Below, in pieces: positions 1 to 5,700 of a stretch of 5,700 nucleotides of DNA. The position numbers and the translations under genes are program-made. This DNA comes from a virus. Its lineage: Duplodnaviria > Heunggongvirae > Uroviricota > Caudoviricetes. Where the stretch lies: IMG/VR virus record IMGVR_UViG_2778261535_000007, positions 1 through 5,700 of that record. One strand, given 5' to 3'. The first letter of the stretch is position 1, and each line of letters starts with the position of its first letter. The notes beneath the pieces are model-generated. The model made no database searches and was not told where the DNA came from. It saw nothing but the letters and a program-made list of their open reading frames with translations.

Positions 1-1434
1 ATGCTGTCTTTAGAAGATAGATTAAAGTCATGTGGTACAATAGAATTGTATAATGAGAAAGCTAAACAACATAATGTAATAATAAAAAACACGGAGGATG
101 CATTAAAAAAAATAATTTCAAGAATCAACACCGCTCAAGAATTAGTATCTTCAATTGAAAATAATTTCAGTATATATCGTTCTAAAAAACAGGATAAAGG
201 AAAGAAAAAGAACGCCTTCGAGCGGTTGATGAACTCTATTAAGGTAGAAAAGGAATTATTTGTTGAGGAAGTGAAATATAATAATTTTCTAAAGGGTTTA
301 AATAAAGAATATGAAGAATTTTATAAGGCGGCTTATGATTTCAAAAGAACCAAAGAGTTGCAGATTCTTGCTGGAATAAATAATTCTATAGTGCATTATT
401 ATAATGAAATAAATAAACATGATGACGATAGCGAAAAATTGAACGATATATCGTTTGTTTATGTTGAGTCTTTGAAATCATATCGATTACAACTTGATAT
501 CAACGGTGTTCCGGCTGATGCTTTTGTTAGACTGTCCGAGGGACATCTTAAATCATTAGGGCTGGCAATACTTTTAGCATTGGCGAAAAAGAAACAATCT
601 CAATTTATTGTTTTCGATGATGTAGTTAATGCTATAGATACTGAGCATAGGTCTAATATAATTAATACATTCTTAACTGATCCGTATATTAAAAGAACAC
701 AAAAGATAATCACCACTCATGATAAATTGTTCTGGGAATTGTATAGCAATCGAGAAAAGAGTTTAGGTAATGGGGAGTTCTCAAGTTTTATTCTTGAGTG
801 CTATCCTCATGGAATTCATTTTGAGGAGCGCGATATTTCCTTTGAGGGAAAAATATCAGAAAGTTTAGAACACTATGATATTCGGCAGGCGCTTATTTAC
901 TGTCGTATCTGGTTTGAGTCATTAGCAACCGAACATTGTGTAGCGTCAGAATTAAGTCTTACAGCAAGTTTTACTAACAGGGATTATGTAAAGCCAAATT
1001 TACTTAAAGTTAGTTTGGAGAAAATGTACGCGGTACTTATTGGTTCTTTAGGCGATAGATTGGAAAATATTAATGAAATTAAAAATAATTTTTTGAGCTG
1101 GGGGATACAAAATCAGGAACACCATGCTTTTAGCGAAAATAACTATAATATAATTCATTCCAAGACTAGCCAGGAAATACAGGTTATATTTGATTCGATT
1201 AGGAAGTTTAAAATACAACTATCACCAACAGTTAGTCTTGTTAGTTTGACTGATCAACTTTTATCACTAAATGATAAAATAAATGCCATTGAAAATAGAA
1301 TTCAAAGTGCCAATCCTGCAGTTCCAGTGGATGTTATTCGAAAATGGAGTAATGATAAATCTAGATTAGTGAAAGAAAAAGAAAAAGTAGATGAGTTGAA
1401 GGTCTATTGTGAAAGCTGTATCCCTCAAGTTTAA
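1..1434 (+). CDS. ABC/SMC/RecF-like ATPase, C-terminal part (5'-partial at window edge), fused to an uncharacterised ~230-aa C-terminal domain; candidate anti-phage defence protein
   Basis: Uninterrupted 477-codon ORF ending in TAA at 1432..1434. It contains an ABC signature-like motif LSEGH (nt 532..546), a Walker B-like FIVFDD (nt 604..621), a D-loop-like AID, and an H-loop-like KIITTHD (nt ~703..723). No Walker A/P-loop lies N-terminal to these within the window, so the true start is probably upstream and the ATG at position 1 probably internal. The N-terminal ~170 aa are Lys/Glu-rich and helical-looking. GC is about 28-30% (counted on the first 60 nt), against >50% in the adjacent phage genes. 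Confidence 0.7.
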   Translation: MLSLEDRLKSCGTIELYNEKAKQHNVIIKNTEDALKKIISRINTAQELVSSIENNFSIYRSKKQDKGKKKNAFERLMNSIKVEKELFVEEVKYNNFLKGLNKEYEEFYKAAYDFKRTKELQILAGINNSIVHYYNEINKHDDDSEKLNDISFVYVESLKSYRLQLDINGVPADAFVRLSEGHLKSLGLAILLALAKKKQSQFIVFDDVVNAIDTEHRSNIINTFLTDPYIKRTQKIITTHDKLFWELYSNREKSLGNGEFSSFILECYPHGIHFEERDISFEGKISESLEHYDIRQALIYCRIWFESLATEHCVASELSLTASFTNRDYVKPNLLKVSLEKMYAVLIGSLGDRLENINEIKNNFLSWGIQNQEHHAFSENNYNIIHSKTSQEIQVIFDSIRKFKIQLSPTVSLVSLTDQLLSLNDKINAIENRIQSANPAVPVDVIRKWSNDKSRLVKEKEKVDELKVYCESCIPQV

Positions 1435-1444
1435 AATTAAAATC

Positions 1445-1465
1445 AAGCCCCGTTTTTCGGGGCTT
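1445..1465. terminator. Bidirectional intrinsic terminator hairpin between convergent genes
   Basis: Perfect 8-bp GC-rich stem AAGCCCCG (1445..1452) / CGGGGCTT (1458..1465) with a TTTTT loop. On the minus-strand transcript the stem is followed by GAUUUUAAUUUUA; on the plus-strand transcript by GGUUAUAUUAAUU. It lies 10 nt after the stop of the + gene (1432..1434) and 2 nt after the stop of the - gene (1468..1470). Confidence 0.6.
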
Positions 1466-1467
1466 GG

Positions 1468-1794
1468 TTATATTAATTGATTACTGAGTAGATCCAACGC
1501 AAGTTGTTTTTCTTCCGGCTTAAGTCGGTCAATCAGGAATTTAACCAGCTTGTTGCCGGTCAGCCCGCTGGGGCTGAGGGTATGTGAAAACTGGGCGTTA
1601 AAAACAAAGGTGTGGCCGCATTCAACTTCCGTGCAGGCGCAGTATAAATCAGCCAGTTTTTTGTCTTTCCAGTCAGATTTACGAATGATGGCCGGTGAGC
1701 CGCATTCAGGACATTTAATTTTAAAAACTCGCATGTTCACCATCCCGCACGCCATTGCTAACAATGGGGATGATTTTAACTTAACTGCGCTCAT
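1468..1794 (-). CDS. Ogr/Delta-family C4 zinc-finger protein (putative late-gene transcriptional activator)
   Basis: The protein carries C-P-E-C, then 22 residues, then C-X4-C (CPECGSPAIIRKSDWKDKKLADLYCACTEVECGHTF). This C-X2-C-X22-C-X4-C spacing, with a conserved Y before the third Cys and TF after the fourth, matches P2 Ogr / P4 Delta as I recall them. Its ATG (1794..1792) overlaps the portal stop codon (ATGA). The real start could instead be an internal Met (for example MRVFKIKCPECG), giving about 88 aa. Confidence 0.7.
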   Translation of the reverse strand: MSAVKLKSSPLLAMACGMVNMRVFKIKCPECGSPAIIRKSDWKDKKLADLYCACTEVECGHTFVFNAQFSHTLSPSGLTGNKLVKFLIDRLKPEEKQLALDLLSNQLI

Positions 1795-2852
1795 TTTTCG
1801 CCCTTTTCGGTGGTAATTGTCGGGATATCCACGTCAAAAACCAGGTGCAAGTGTGCGGGGATCTCCGGGTCATTGTTGACGCCGTTCATTAGCTTGCGCT
1901 GCAAGGGGATAACTTCATCCTTGCGATAGGTTGTGCGGGCGGTTTCAGGGTTTCCCATTACCGCGCCGTTGGTCGGGATGATACCCGCCAGGCCAGCGGG
2001 GAAACGGTGGGCGGTAAAGATATCCTGTGCGGTGATCCCTTTGATGTTGGCAAATTCATCCTTTGCGCTGACTTCGCCCACTGGCATGATTTTAACCCCT
2101 TCCGGGTCGCCCTTCGGGATGTTGATAAACATATTGCGGAAGTTACCCAGCCCTTTGGACTGGGCGATCTTCTCTTTGATTTCGTTTTCCATTTCCAGCG
2201 TCAGATTGGGATCGCTGGTATAGAGAATAAAGCCCATGTGCGCCCCGTTATTGTAGTAACGGCGCCGGAAGATGGTTGCCTCACTGTTGAGTAACACCGA
2301 ATGGATGCCGCCGATATAGTCAGGCAGGCCATATACCTGCTGGCGCGGGTCGTACATTTTAAAAAAGACGATGTCTTCCGGGTCATAGATAAGCGCTGGC
2401 CCTTCCTGCAGAACAGCAAACGACCCGTCTTTTCGGCAGCGCAGATACAGCGACGGCAGCGGCATCAGGTCGATCACTTCCCCGAATACGTTACGAATTT
2501 TCAGAATCGCGACGTCACCAAATAGCATGTAATCAAAGACAGCCTGTTCGACCAGGTCAGGTGTCAGGCCGCCGCCGATGTAGCCACCGGCCACCATATT
2601 GCGCCGCGCATACAGTACCCCGCCGTGCTGGCCGTTAAGGTTCGGCAACTGGGCCAGCGCCAGGCGATCAATCGGAAGTCGCCAGTGGTCATACTCATTG
2701 TCATACCAGATATTGTGATAATCCGTGCCGGTCGTCAGGATGGGTTCGGGTTCGCCAAATGTGATCACGCTTCCGCGCCCTGGCGTGAAGGTTTCAACCT
2801 TGTTGCCGATCATGGACCTGAATTTTTTATTATTACGCTGTTTCTTTGTCAT
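1791..2852 (-). CDS. Q: Phage portal protein, P2 gpQ-like
   Basis: 353-aa ORF with conserved P2-family portal blocks as recalled (YGLPDY...LLNSEATIFRRRYY.NG.H.GFI, KG.GNFRN.F...P, EVSAKD.F.NIK). It lies immediately downstream of and overlapping the terminase ATPase gene, the same P-then-Q order as in P2. Confidence 0.93.
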   Translation of the reverse strand: MTKKQRNNKKFRSMIGNKVETFTPGRGSVITFGEPEPILTTGTDYHNIWYDNEYDHWRLPIDRLALAQLPNLNGQHGGVLYARRNMVAGGYIGGGLTPDLVEQAVFDYMLFGDVAILKIRNVFGEVIDLMPLPSLYLRCRKDGSFAVLQEGPALIYDPEDIVFFKMYDPRQQVYGLPDYIGGIHSVLLNSEATIFRRRYYNNGAHMGFILYTSDPNLTLEMENEIKEKIAQSKGLGNFRNMFINIPKGDPEGVKIMPVGEVSAKDEFANIKGITAQDIFTAHRFPAGLAGIIPTNGAVMGNPETARTTYRKDEVIPLQRKLMNGVNNDPEIPAHLHLVFDVDIPTITTEKGEK

Positions 2853-4660
2853 GCTGCTTTCCCAAAATACCAGCCCGATGGGCGGTCATATTCGTGATCG
2901 ATAGGTTCGTTAATTATGGCGTGCGAGATAGCGAAGAAAACATCTGCATGGCCGGTCGCGTCTGAACGTTCGGCAACAAATGTCAGCGCGTTGCCGCTGT
3001 TGGTTGTTGTGCGTCGGATAGCCATAAAGCTGGCCGGAATTTCGACGCGCTCTTTGTTCGTTTCGTCTACGGCGTCTTTTGCCCATTCGATGCGTTTACG
3101 CTCGACAACGTCGATCATCTTCATTACCAGACGGTTTTTGCTTTCGACGCTGTAAAGAATGGGTGTGGCTTCGCGCGGTGCAAACTTGCTGACCAGGTCA
3201 TAAACGCCCTTACCTATGCCGGTTGTATCGATCCCGATGTAAGTGATGTTAAAGCGGCGCATAAGCAGCTTTATCTGGTCGGCCTGCCAGCTGAAGTTAA
3301 AGCCCTGCCATTGCCAGACGGCCAGCACGCGGAAGCGCTCGCCGTCCTCTATGGGGGGCGCGATTAACACAAAGGTGGAGTTGTCGCCGGATCGTGACGG
3401 GTCGAAGCCTGCCCATACTTCGCGATTGCCGAAGGGCCGCGCAGCGGTCAGATCAAAGTCGCCCCATGTGGCCCGGTCCACTTCACAGCCGACAAGCGCG
3501 GAGAACTTGAACACCGCGTCCTTACTGTCAACGAACTGGCACATGTAGAGCATGGCGAACGCGGTCGGGCTGTATTTGTTGCGCAGCCGTTCAATATCGA
3601 CAAGCGTACCGAGGCCACCTTCGATAGCGTCTTCCATCGTGATGATGTAGCGCCAGATCTGGTCCGGGCAGAGAATACCCTGGCCCATTTCGCTTTCTGT
3701 CGGGAACTCCACACCTTTGCGTTTCGGGTCGTCCCCGCGCCAGGCTTCGCCAGTCCAGACCGGGTAAGCCTGGTGCGTTTTCGCGCTGGGCGTCGAAAAG
3801 TAGGTCGTCCGGTATTTGTTATGCGTTGCCATTGCGCTGGCAACTTCGTGCAGGCGCGTGAATTTCGGGATCCAGAAAACCTCATCGCCATACAGGTGGC
3901 CGTTAAAGCCCTGTGCTGTGCTGGCGTTCGTGGACAAAAAGCGCAGTATTGCGCCGTTACTGAGGCGGATATTTTTACCCGTCAGCGTCACGCCGAAATG
4001 GTTCTGGGCGATCTGGACGATGTATTCGCGGAAGATTTCCGACTGGGATCGGCTTGCAGAGAAAAAGACCTGGTTATCACCGGTAATGACAGCATCTTCG
4101 AATGCTTCCCAGGCGAAATAATAGGTCATACCCACCTGGCGGCTTTTCAGAATGAAGCGCCAGTCTTCGCCTTTATGTTCGCGGCAGTGCAGCTGGTACT
4201 CGAAGAGATGTTCCCGCGCCCAGGTGTCGAGCATTTCCGCTGTAATACCGGAAACGTCGTTTTTCTTATACCGGCGCTTTCTTTCCCCAGGTTCCCCGCC
4301 TGCGCTGCTGAGGCAGTACCCTTCACCATCATAAGCCGCTTTCTGGGCCTGAATTTCTGCCAGCTTTTCGGCGTGCTTGTTGCGCTGCGCCATGAGTTTC
4401 ACATGGTGAGCAATCAGATCGCGCAGTTCTTCCAGTTCCAGCGCTGTTTTTTTCTCGCGGCGGGAGAGCTGGTCGATACGGCGGGCGATGACATTTTCCA
4501 CCGATTCAACAGGCAGCAGTGATGCCCACTTCCCGACGTCAGCCCAGTGGTAAATTGTACGCGGTGGAATATTCAGTTCCTGCGCAATATCTTTCGGCGT
4601 CCAGCTTTTTATATAAAGCGTGCGGGCCGCTTCTTTTAATTCATCGGAATATTTAGCCAT
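2849..4660 (-). CDS. P: Terminase ATPase (large) subunit, P2 gpP-like
   Basis: 603-aa ORF of typical size and position for P2 gpP, divergent from the scaffold gene. Its stop overlaps the portal start by 4 nt. The N-terminus looks helix-turn-helix-like (TPKDIAQELNIPPRTIYHW). Confidence 0.92.
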   Translation of the reverse strand: MAKYSDELKEAARTLYIKSWTPKDIAQELNIPPRTIYHWADVGKWASLLPVESVENVIARRIDQLSRREKKTALELEELRDLIAHHVKLMAQRNKHAEKLAEIQAQKAAYDGEGYCLSSAGGEPGERKRRYKKNDVSGITAEMLDTWAREHLFEYQLHCREHKGEDWRFILKSRQVGMTYYFAWEAFEDAVITGDNQVFFSASRSQSEIFREYIVQIAQNHFGVTLTGKNIRLSNGAILRFLSTNASTAQGFNGHLYGDEVFWIPKFTRLHEVASAMATHNKYRTTYFSTPSAKTHQAYPVWTGEAWRGDDPKRKGVEFPTESEMGQGILCPDQIWRYIITMEDAIEGGLGTLVDIERLRNKYSPTAFAMLYMCQFVDSKDAVFKFSALVGCEVDRATWGDFDLTAARPFGNREVWAGFDPSRSGDNSTFVLIAPPIEDGERFRVLAVWQWQGFNFSWQADQIKLLMRRFNITYIGIDTTGIGKGVYDLVSKFAPREATPILYSVESKNRLVMKMIDVVERKRIEWAKDAVDETNKERVEIPASFMAIRRTTTNSGNALTFVAERSDATGHADVFFAISHAIINEPIDHEYDRPSGWYFGKAA

Positions 4661-4837
4661 GCGGCTATTATGGCGGGATTATTTTGCGGAATTGATAATT
4701 AAATATCGGTAAAAGGTGGCTATTCAGTTATAACCGAATACATAAGAAATAAAGCGGTCGCGCTGTTTTAATCAATTCGCAATACTGACCACCACAAACG
4801 AATCATTGTTATTTAAATTTATTATTAAAGGTCAGTT
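4661..4837. promoter_or_regulatory. Divergent late-promoter region between the P-Q operon (leftward) and the O operon (rightward)
   Basis: 177-bp AT-rich intergenic region between two divergent start codons, at the position of the P and O late promoters in P2. It contains an imperfect Ogr-box-like dyad, TGT-N12-GCA, at 4764..4781 (consensus TGT-N12-ACA) and an AAAGG Shine-Dalgarno 6 nt before the ATG at 4838. No clean -35 is seen, which is expected for activator-dependent late promoters. Confidence 0.45.
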
Positions 4838-5700
4838 ATGCCGCAACCTCATTACCGCACGGATTGGCTATGTATTGCCACATCTGGACAGGCTGTGGAC
4901 GGTCGCACCATTGAACCGCAATGGTTGATTGATGCGGCAGAAACCTACACCCGCAAAACCTACACGGCCATGATTTGGCCGCACCATCCGCAATGCGATA
5001 TCAGCGAACGTGAATTTACCTGCAATCTGGGGGAAGTGGACGCGCTGAAAGTGGAAACGGAAGGTGATGTCACGAAGTTATATGCCCAGTTAATCCCGAA
5101 TCAATTTTTAATTGAAGCCAATCGGCAGGGGCAAAAGTTATTTACGTCAGCAGAATTTGTCACTGATTTTGCAGGCAGTGGTCGTGAATATCTTTTTGGG
5201 CTGGCTGTGACGGATATTCCGGCAAGTCTGGGAACGGAAAAACTTAAATTCGTTTTAGCCGGTGAAGAAAAGGACGCCGAGCGCGGGAGTCTGGAAACAT
5301 TCAGTTTAGGAAAATTACAGACAAGTAAACCGGATAAAAAAAATTCTTTCTGGTCGCGTTTATTTTCGGCCAGTAAAGATTTTACGCCAACCCCAGAGCC
5401 AAACACTGATAAGCCCACCGAGGGCGACGGAGAAAAAATGGAAGAATTAAAAGCGCTCATTCAGCAAATGCTGGATCTGCTTAAAAGCGGTAAAGACGCC
5501 GCAACGGGTGATGCTGACACGGTTGATACCCCGGAACAGGCCGCTGATGTGGTGGCAGATGTTGCCGCCCAGATCGCTGATGCGGCCGACGAGGTGGCTG
5601 AGCTGGCGCAGGACGTTATCGAAAACCCGGAAGACGAAGTCAAAGCGGAAGAATTCAGCGCCGCCAAAGCCAACCTGGCAAAAGTCATGAAGTCATTCAA
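4838..5700 (+). CDS. O: Capsid scaffolding protein, P2 gpO-like (3'-partial, runs off the window)
   Basis: ATG at 4838 preceded by an in-frame TAA (4826..4828) and an AAAGG SD. I translated the frame by hand and found no stop through 5700 (287 codons). It is absent from the ORF track apparently only because it has no stop in the window. The Ala/Asp/Glu-rich C-terminal part and its position divergent from P match gpO. Confidence 0.85.
   Translation, partial: MPQPHYRTDWLCIATSGQAVDGRTIEPQWLIDAAETYTRKTYTAMIWPHHPQCDISEREFTCNLGEVDALKVETEGDVTKLYAQLIPNQFLIEANRQGQKLFTSAEFVTDFAGSGREYLFGLAVTDIPASLGTEKLKFVLAGEEKDAERGSLETFSLGKLQTSKPDKKNSFWSRLFSASKDFTPTPEPNTDKPTEGDGEKMEELKALIQQMLDLLKSGKDAATGDADTVDTPEQAADVVADVAAQIADAADEVAELAQDVIENPEDEVKAEEFSAAKANLAKVMKSF

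Follow-up and report, generated by a model that had tools for sequence, protein, structure and literature searches.

The window, that is, the whole stretch of 5,700 nucleotides that was analysed, contains a small zinc-finger gene placed between a cargo gene and the late head genes of a P2-related prophage. The genes of the window and the parts of the zinc-finger gene are the following.

1..1434, plus strand: cargo gene, the C-terminal 477 residues of a 941-residue AAA_23/SMC_N ATPase; variable, and not part of the regulator
1441..1469, no single strand: hairpin of a bidirectional intrinsic terminator between the convergent cargo and zinc-finger genes, followed on the minus strand by ATTTTAATTTT
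1468..1794, minus strand: zinc-finger open reading frame, long form (108 aa), whose ATG overlaps the portal TGA
1468..1734, minus strand: short form (88 aa) of the same frame, starting at M21 (MRVFKIKCPEC...), a start kept in nearly all homologues
1576..1716, minus strand: Ogr_Delta domain (PF04606), residues 27-73
1618-1713, minus strand: zinc-ribbon motif
1791..2852, minus strand: portal gene (Q homologue, 353 aa; TIGR01540 with 231 bits, and PF04860)
2849..4660, minus strand: large terminase gene (P homologue, 603 aa; PF06056, PF03237 and PF17289), first gene of the late P-Q operon
4838 and running off the window, plus strand: scaffold gene O (GPO), divergent from P

The 108-codon reading frame at 1468-1794 on the minus strand, first noticed in a sequence-only reading of this DNA, is confirmed. 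So is its overlap with the portal gene, since the ATG (1794-1792) shares two bases with the portal TGA (1793-1791) in an ATGA at 1794-1791. The encoded protein carries the motif C28-X2-C31-X22-C54-X4-C59, with an additional cysteine at C52, and the four zinc-ribbon cysteines are invariant or nearly so among 30 homologues. In a profile search it matched Pfam PF04606 (Ogr_Delta) with 62.9 bits against a cutoff of 26.3 (E = 2.6e-17), which places the family match far beyond chance. The match runs over positions 1-47 of the 47 of the model, i.e. the full-length domain. The protein also matches PHROG 603, "transcriptional regulator" (E = 1.6e-41). Profile score, four-cysteine motif and P2-family context all agree with membership, as does the small single-domain character of the protein, and the description of the product as an Ogr-like C-X2-C-X22-C-X4-C protein holds. 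At the equivalog level the result was different. The NCBIfam Ogr model (NF007241 / PRK09678) gave only 19.8 bits against a cutoff of 116, so this level is not reached, and identity to P2 Ogr amounts to 32% over no more than 37 aa. On these scores the protein is a member of the Ogr/Delta family and not a strict Ogr orthologue. A PADLOC search returned no defence-family match for it.

The best-known members of this group, P2 Ogr, 186 B and PSP3 Pag, are 72-aa zinc-finger late-gene activators of P2-like coliphages. P2 Ogr acts through the alpha subunit of RNA polymerase. It shares with the window protein the Pfam family, the cysteine motif, the small size and the fact of being the only such gene in its phage. 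The window protein differs from it by a sequence identity of 32% that is confined to the zinc finger, by a score that falls short of the Ogr equivalog model, and by its length of 88 (or 108) aa instead of 72. Counted from M21, most of the additional residues belong to a conserved C-terminal tail with predicted helices, which bears out the earlier remark that the tail is longer than that of Ogr. An AlphaFold2 model built from 30 homologous sequences was poor (mean pLDDT 54). At low confidence, the zinc ribbon is modelled as three beta strands and residues 80-103, near the C-terminus, as a pair of helices; residues 1-24 fall below pLDDT 50 and are unstructured in it. A profile search of PDB sequences gave chance-level matches only (E >= 0.19), and thus no solved structure of any relative.

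The late-gene side of the window has close relatives. Positions 1485-5700 are 98% identical to the Salmonella phages SW5, SW3 and SI7 (Peduoviridae, Irrigatiovirus) and prophages of 19 complete Escherichia coli genomes match positions 1483-5700 with 97% identity. The homology to SW5 and to the E. coli prophages ends at window position 1483-1485. In these phages and prophages the zinc-finger gene is annotated as "transcriptional regulator" or "ogr/Delta-like zinc finger family protein". The exact 108-aa protein is present on at least 24 assembled contigs with a single gene order: integrase, HTH repressor, Cox, Fil, Dam, GPA rep, the 941-aa ATPase, Ogr_Delta, portal and terminase, and beyond the terminase, divergently, GPO, capsid and small terminase.

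Position of the gene within the P2 family

The sequence-only reading had presented the place of the gene, next to the portal gene and far from where ogr lies in P2, as unusual. Its account of P2 itself was accurate: the P2 record places ogr behind D and beside attP/int, 81 nt downstream of this late gene and on the same strand, with its own -35 and -10 in the spacer. The point that was missed is that P2 ogr, too, lies directly downstream of a late operon, the F operon, and shares its terminator, which the record annotates after ogr as "rho-independent terminator for ogr transcript and F operon". The window gene fills the same kind of slot, behind the P-Q rather than the F-D operon. Moreover, the site of ogr differs between lineages of the P2 family, being after D in P2 and inside the early operon in the Burkholderia phages KS5 and KL3.

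Vibrio phage K139, Salmonella phage SW5, Cronobacter phage ESSI-2, Aeromonas phage phiO18P and HP1, which represent five Peduoviridae genera, all have these genes in the order rep, variable cargo, zinc finger, portal, terminase. Counterparts in K139, Smhb1, phiO18P, ESSI-2 and SW5/SW3/SI7 occupy the same place between rep/cargo and portal. They are direct homologues, the identity to the window protein being 96% for SW5/SI7, 58% for ESSI-2 and 52% for K139 orf13, which is annotated "zinc-finger protein" at the equivalent position. The HP1 copy on the portal side is an unannotated and apparently frameshifted reading frame. Species-representative genomes supplied 80 related loci, and in 57 of them the gene next upstream, on the same strand, is a portal homologue; a terminase precedes the portal gene in all of these except two fragmentary ones. 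The position of the zinc-finger gene beside the portal gene was also stated for K139 and Smhb1 in a 2021 paper (PMC8537503).

As to a further, canonical ogr elsewhere in the same genome, which the sequence-only reading had proposed to look for, no second Ogr-type gene was detected in the complete SW5 genome or in the prophage of E. coli RM13322 by tblastn with P2 Ogr and the window protein or by a six-frame scan for the cysteine motif. Likewise, no second PF04606 gene occurs in the 20.3-kb stretch from integrase to lysis genes of the source prophage. The window thus has the HP1/K139-type organisation, with the sole ogr homologue between rep/cargo and portal and on the portal strand. Since the portal-side site is the standard position in this lineage and the gene is the only ogr homologue, the claim of an unusual arrangement falls away. 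Judged from gene order, a zinc-finger gene beside the portal gene is the ordinary, documented placement in the HP1/K139-like branch of the P2 family. Gene, family and position are already known, being annotated in near-identical phages and prophages. The position as such has therefore little discovery value, as it has already been discussed in print for K139-type phages.

Start codons, spacer and expression of the zinc-finger gene

The sequence-only reading had ascribed to the protein an N-terminal extension of about 20 aa and had considered it probably co-expressed with the head genes. In-frame ATG codons lie at residues 1, 14, 18 and 21, and gene callers choose differently among them. PGAP annotates 91 aa from M18 in the 97%-identical E. 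coli prophages, which leaves a 47-nt gap to the portal gene; other callers give 108, 105, 88 or 81 aa, and the annotations of SW5, SI7 and ESSI-2 use the long form. M21 is the only start that is kept in nearly all homologues, including the satellite copies with no portal gene upstream. Across loci it is preceded at 9-12 nt by a Shine-Dalgarno-like GGAG/GGGA, which in the window is part of GGGATGGTGA at 1737-1746.

The upstream start is conserved as well. A start codon (ATG, GTG or TTG) lies at the portal stop in 51 of the 52 portal-adjacent loci. Directly before the portal TGA stands A, G or T but in no case C, although the residue encoded by the last portal codon differs between loci (K, A, E, L, I or Q); when the portal stop is TAA, a TAATG overlap is found in four of five such loci. 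This start is preceded by a Shine-Dalgarno-like GGnG, in which the G at -8 is invariant and the G at -12, a third codon position of the portal gene, is 92% conserved. The distance between the portal stop and the zinc-finger gene proper is also constrained. In K139, which has an extra small reading frame (orf14), the portal gene is 270 nt away, and in phiO18P it is 65 nt away. In the window, as in most of its enterobacterial relatives, this gap is reduced to a fixed length of 50-56 nt (50, 53 or 56 nt) and is open as an in-frame extension. All 48 distinct spacers are free of stops in this frame; stops occur in 25/48 and 48/48 of them in the other two frames and in about 33/48 in shuffled sequences. 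The pN/pS ratio of the extension, which rests on pairwise counts that are not phylogenetically independent, is 0.48-0.57, and in both large groups the other two frames have higher values; the core has 0.14-0.20, so that constraint on the extension is much weaker. In two loci (L052 and L060) an arginine codon has changed from AGG to CGT with the arginine kept.

The same 60 nt hold elements that look like a promoter.

1773..1778, minus strand: TAAAAT, predicted -10 box of the zinc-finger gene's own promoter, essentially invariant
1796..1801, minus strand: GCGAAA, weak candidate -35 box (3/6 matches, 17-nt spacer), within the last portal codons

In the window TAAAAT occupies the bases 13-18 nt past the portal stop, and 38 nt separate it from the M21 ATG downstream. 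It begins 13 nt after the portal stop in general and 16 nt after it in five loci with a 74-nt spacing. The hexamer shows essentially no variation among 50 distinct sequences, and its conservation does not depend on codon phase: the leucine, valine or isoleucine codons beneath it always end in TA (xTA), and the lysine codon is always AAA save for one GAA. The G two bases upstream (1780), at the extended -10 position, is 86% conserved even though it is a third codon position; in alignments it is also numbered +11 or -14. The candidate -35 overlaps the Shine-Dalgarno-like GGGCG (1799-1803) that precedes the ATGA start. A consensus promoter scan of the window did not call this promoter because its -35 is too weak, with three matches of six. 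In K139 the depositors annotated a separate promoter, P13, and HP1 carries TGATATAAT upstream of its zinc-finger copy. From this conservation we predict that the zinc-finger gene has its own promoter with TAAAAT as -10. The regions upstream of the satellite copies do not have the TAAAAT context; two of these copies (L054 and L020) carry GGTTAAA[AC]T inside a large hairpin.

No minus-strand terminator was found between the portal stop and the zinc-finger gene, and the first one follows the zinc-finger stop codon. Late P-Q transcripts should therefore run through the zinc-finger gene as far as the hairpin at 1441-1469, so that the co-expression with head genes proposed earlier is likely at the level of transcription. 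A candidate terminator at 1752-1767 was discarded: it is on the plus strand, the wrong one, and has no T-run on the minus strand.

These data bear on how the product is made. One could suppose that the 108-aa protein is the sole product, the third cistron of the P-Q operon, translated through the ATGA overlap and with no promoter of its own. The overlap itself, the GGGCG 4 nt upstream of it, the lack of a terminator behind the portal gene and the long form annotated in SW5, SI7 and ESSI-2 would all fit. However, an invariant, phase-independent -10 box would then lie within the supposed extension, and M21 with its own Shine-Dalgarno sequence is conserved even in loci with no upstream portal gene. 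Separate promoters and larger gaps are found in K139 and HP1. In addition, a sole activator that is transcribed only from a promoter requiring this same activator could not start the cascade. We regard expression through the portal overlap alone as improbable, well below the other two accounts given here.

A second possibility is that only a short protein of 88-91 aa is made, from M21 or M18, in which case the 60 nt after the portal stop would be non-coding and the ATGA incidental. This is a plausible minority view. It accords with the 91-aa PGAP annotation and its 47-nt gap, with the near-universal M21, with the 83-aa genes of K139 and phiO18P that are separated from the portal gene, and with the unstructured residues 1-24 (pLDDT below 50). 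It also accords with the conservation of TAAAAT, of the G at -14 and of GGAG, which is one of nucleotides and not of codons. What it explains poorly is the spacer frame free of stops in 48 of 48 cases, the start at the portal stop that is kept through varied last codons together with GGnG and its 92%-conserved third-position G, the lowest pN/pS in the extension frame in both large groups, and the switch from AGG to CGT that preserves arginine.

The proposed extension is thus partly upheld. The open frame and the upstream start are conserved; an invariant -10 box and a near-universal start at M21 lie within it. A 108-aa isoform may, from the sequence comparison, be made additionally on the late read-through transcript, under weak constraint. 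That there are two isoforms is something we infer, given that the pairwise counts behind these statistics are not independent of phylogeny. Our combined proposal is that the 60 nt are used twice, as extension and as extended -10 promoter, with an 88-aa isoform made early and a 108-aa isoform made late only, and with the lineage-specific operator TTCGG-N13/14-CCGAA near -66 described below. In this complete form the proposal is tentative, and we would not bet on all of its parts being right. If it were true, the late 108-aa isoform might not have the same activity as the short one and could serve, for instance, in feedback or shut-off. What is modestly new here is the dual use of the spacer, with a predicted promoter lying in an extension that may be translated, and the conserved dyad at the late promoters. 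For annotation, in which callers arrive at 108, 105, 91 or 88 aa, the comparison favours M21 as the near-universal start, and the coupled upstream start is possibly real.

Late promoters and probable role of the protein

The intergenic region between the divergent genes P and O contains the following predicted elements.

4667..4672, minus strand: CATAAT, predicted -10 of the late P promoter, 6 nt before the P ATG, conserved in both clades
4705..4748, no strand: candidate activator-binding region between the divergent P and O promoters, homologous to TTCGG-N13/14-CCGAA of the relatives
4781..4786, plus strand: AATACT, predicted -10 of the late O promoter, in a conserved block (CAGTATT on the other strand)

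Of 56 distinct P/O regions, 45 contain the dyad TTCGG-N13/14-CCGAA with no more than one mismatch; K139 is among them, and its P16/P17 promoter region has a perfect TTCGG-N14-CCGAA. Its centre lies 52.5-54.5 nt upstream of a conserved [C/G/A]ATAAT -10 box, with a leader of 6-7 or 30-40 nt. In the window the inner dyad is formed by GGTGG (4715-4719) and CCGAA (4734-4738), and outer half-sites ATCGG (4705-4709) and AAGAA (4744-4748) lie 10 nt further out. One arm of the inner dyad is degenerate in the window's own clade, CCACC replacing CCGAA. The dyad centre, at 4726.5, is 54.5 nt from both predicted -10 boxes (P, 4672-4667; O, 4781-4786). The palindrome TATTCAGTTATAACCGAATA, considered as a repeated operator, was rejected; it is not repeated elsewhere in the prophage and overlaps the lineage dyad. 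No TTCGG dyad was found upstream of the zinc-finger gene itself, where it would have pointed to autoregulation.

P2 and the window are alike in having a central site, in the window a candidate one, between divergent P and O promoters, with an intergenic length of 173 and 177 nt, respectively, and the P2 record lists a single "activator binding site; pO, pP promoters" there. The sites themselves differ, the predicted operator being TTCGG-N13/14-CCGAA near -66 and not the TGT-N12-ACA near -55 of P2. The latter is absent from the P/O region of the window, its sole match in the window, inside the terminase gene, being at chance level, and matches to the relaxed form TGT-N10-14-ACA in the E. coli prophage are not concentrated at operon starts. 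From its conservation and geometry TTCGG-N13/14-CCGAA is a candidate activator site, to which the zinc-finger protein may bind.

The zinc-finger gene most probably encodes the prophage's single Ogr/Delta-family activator, in the HP1/K139 position, expressed from its own promoter and by late read-through; we put the probability of this reading at about three in four. A role in late-gene activation is suggested because the protein is the sole family member, because its gene is in tight synteny with late head genes and because homologues lie beside satellite primases. In satellite-like elements, homologues adjoin a P4-alpha-like primase in 12 of about 22 portal-less loci, and this is as expected for an activator of helper late genes. 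The missing P2 operator in the P/O region and the degenerate dyad arm in the window's own clade are points against an activator.

A scheme for its action can be proposed. After induction, the gene's own promoter (-10 at 1773-1778, extended -10 G, weak -35) would yield the 88-aa protein from M21. By analogy with Ogr, B, Delta and Pag, this protein would bind the P/O dyad, which is centred about 66 nt upstream of both predicted divergent start sites, and would activate the two divergent late promoters from one shared site, as P2 Ogr does. Read-through of the late P-Q transcript to the hairpin at 1441-1469 would then raise its own synthesis in a positive feedback, and the ATGA overlap, by which the start may, unlike that of P2 Ogr, be translationally coupled to the portal stop, may allow a 108-aa isoform to be made on late transcripts. 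The hairpin would end the own-promoter transcript and the read-through transcript alike. In this scheme the family membership, the gene order, the single copy in the genome and the patterns of conservation are observed, and promoter activity, DNA binding, activation and a second isoform are predicted. Of the roles suggested in the sequence-only reading, a positive-feedback late activator is the one that best fits the data, i.e. a sole family member and no terminator after the portal gene, with activation itself presumed by analogy.

The same reading had also offered a regulator of the adjacent cargo, or a zinc finger borrowed for another function. More generally, the protein could have been recruited for cargo ATPase regulation, defence or anti-defence, with the late genes under other control. 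Its gene does adjoin a variable cargo hotspot, and its similarity to the experimentally studied Ogr is only distant. However, phages with a 91-96% identical zinc-finger gene carry unrelated cargo, namely a DNA methylase, a 925-aa hypothetical protein or the 941-aa ATPase, and the two therefore do not co-vary; even among 97-98%-identical phages the cargo differs and the zinc finger stays. The cargo and zinc-finger genes are convergent with a terminator between them, the portal synteny holds in 57 of 80 loci, PADLOC has no match for the protein, and no other candidate late activator was found in the SW5 genome or the RM13322 prophage. A regulator of the cargo is thus unlikely, and a recruited role of any of these kinds appears very improbable, the least likely of all the explanations weighed here. 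The zinc-finger gene does mark one edge of a cargo hotspot with candidate defence genes.

For the activator reading, the dyad and its fixed promoter geometry provide an operator model for late-gene control in HP1/K139-like phages. Such phages are frequently found in E. coli, Salmonella, Enterobacter, Xenorhabdus and Vibrio, with satellites of theirs carrying related activators. P4 Delta and the Delta-like satellite activators belong to the same Pfam family as the window protein. P4 Delta is a tandem duplication of the domain, unlike the window protein, which carries one Ogr_Delta domain. The satellite homologues beside the P4-alpha-like primase are 45-69% identical to the window protein and come from elements with neither portal nor terminase genes, whereas the window copy belongs to a complete helper-type prophage.

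Predicted divergent late promoters between the terminase and scaffold genes

Two predicted elements were located in the region between the large terminase gene P and the divergent GPO scaffold gene O:
4658-4672, minus strand: conserved -10-like CATAAT together with the P start, candidate terminase (P) promoter
4705-4748 (3798-3821 in the K139 locus, L002), P/O region: predicted operator dyad TTCGG-N13/14-CCGAA

The dyad was found in 45 of the 56 related P/O regions. Outer half-sites occur on both of its flanks with a 10-nt phasing, and its distance to the -10 box is fixed for both divergent late promoters. One inner arm has been lost (CCACC) in the clade of the window itself, which comprises SW5, E. 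coli, Enterobacter and Kluyvera. On the terminase side of this region, only 6 nt separate the conserved CATAAT from the P start codon and no Shine-Dalgarno sequence was seen ahead of this codon, which suggests that the P mRNA is leaderless here. In contrast, Xenorhabdus and other relatives have a P leader of 30-40 nt with an AAGGA-type Shine-Dalgarno sequence, whereas the geometry of the -10 box and the dyad is unchanged.

A variable cargo slot beside the zinc-finger gene

Between rep and the zinc-finger gene lies a variable cargo slot, occupied here by the following gene:
1-1485 (10361-13186 in locus L088), convergent with the zinc-finger gene: 941-aa AAA_23/SMC_N ATPase

This ATPase presents weak matches to mad3 and AbiLi (PADLOC). 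The same slot is filled instead by a DNA methylase in the Salmonella phage SW5 and by a 925-aa hypothetical protein in E. coli RM13322, while that of HP1 contains MazG, a methylase and HicB. Since homology between the window and its relatives ends at 1483-1485, i.e. within the final five codons of the zinc-finger gene, the recombination boundary is inside the variable C-terminus of this gene.

Copies in satellite-like elements, partial copies and copies away from the portal gene

Zinc-finger homologues sharing 45–69% identity with the window protein were found in satellite-like elements (loci L086, L025, L061, L066, L068-L070, L072, L074 and L075). A P4-alpha-like primase lies directly upstream of the zinc-finger homologue in these elements, which also carry an integrase, AlpA, a P2-type capsid gene and a fragment of a GPO_N scaffold. 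GTGTTAC-type repeats precede the satellite copies instead of the TAAAAT context, the predicted -10 box of the window gene. In L086, a reverse transcriptase (RVT_1) gene is located just downstream of the homologue.

Matches are confined to the C-terminal ~70 residues of the zinc-finger protein in a Pseudescherichia MAG (L078) and in two Enterobacter intestinihominis loci (L079 and L080). The L078 copy is in frame behind a P4-type integrase-like sequence, and the match in L079 and L080 starts 4 nt into the stretch examined. These partial copies may reflect rearrangement, or insertion into the zinc-finger gene. The portal gene is 2.7 kb from the zinc finger in Serratia ureilytica (L054) and absent in Serratia quinivorans (L020). 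In both loci a GC-rich hairpin with a 10-bp stem presents GGTTAAA[AC]T in its loop, outside any ORF and about 33 nt upstream of the zinc-finger ATG. This element may be a promoter, what is left of a terminator, or an RNA element.

The HP1 counterpart

In the HP1 reference record, terminator T31 and the portal gene orf15 are 337 nt apart, and no gene is annotated between them. An ORF was located in this interval:
about 10447-10680 of NC_001697 (L087), minus strand: Ogr-like ORF

It is split over two frames, with the CxxC part in one and the remainder in the other. The split stems from a frameshift or, alternatively, from an error in the old sequencing. Upstream of it lies TGATATAAT.
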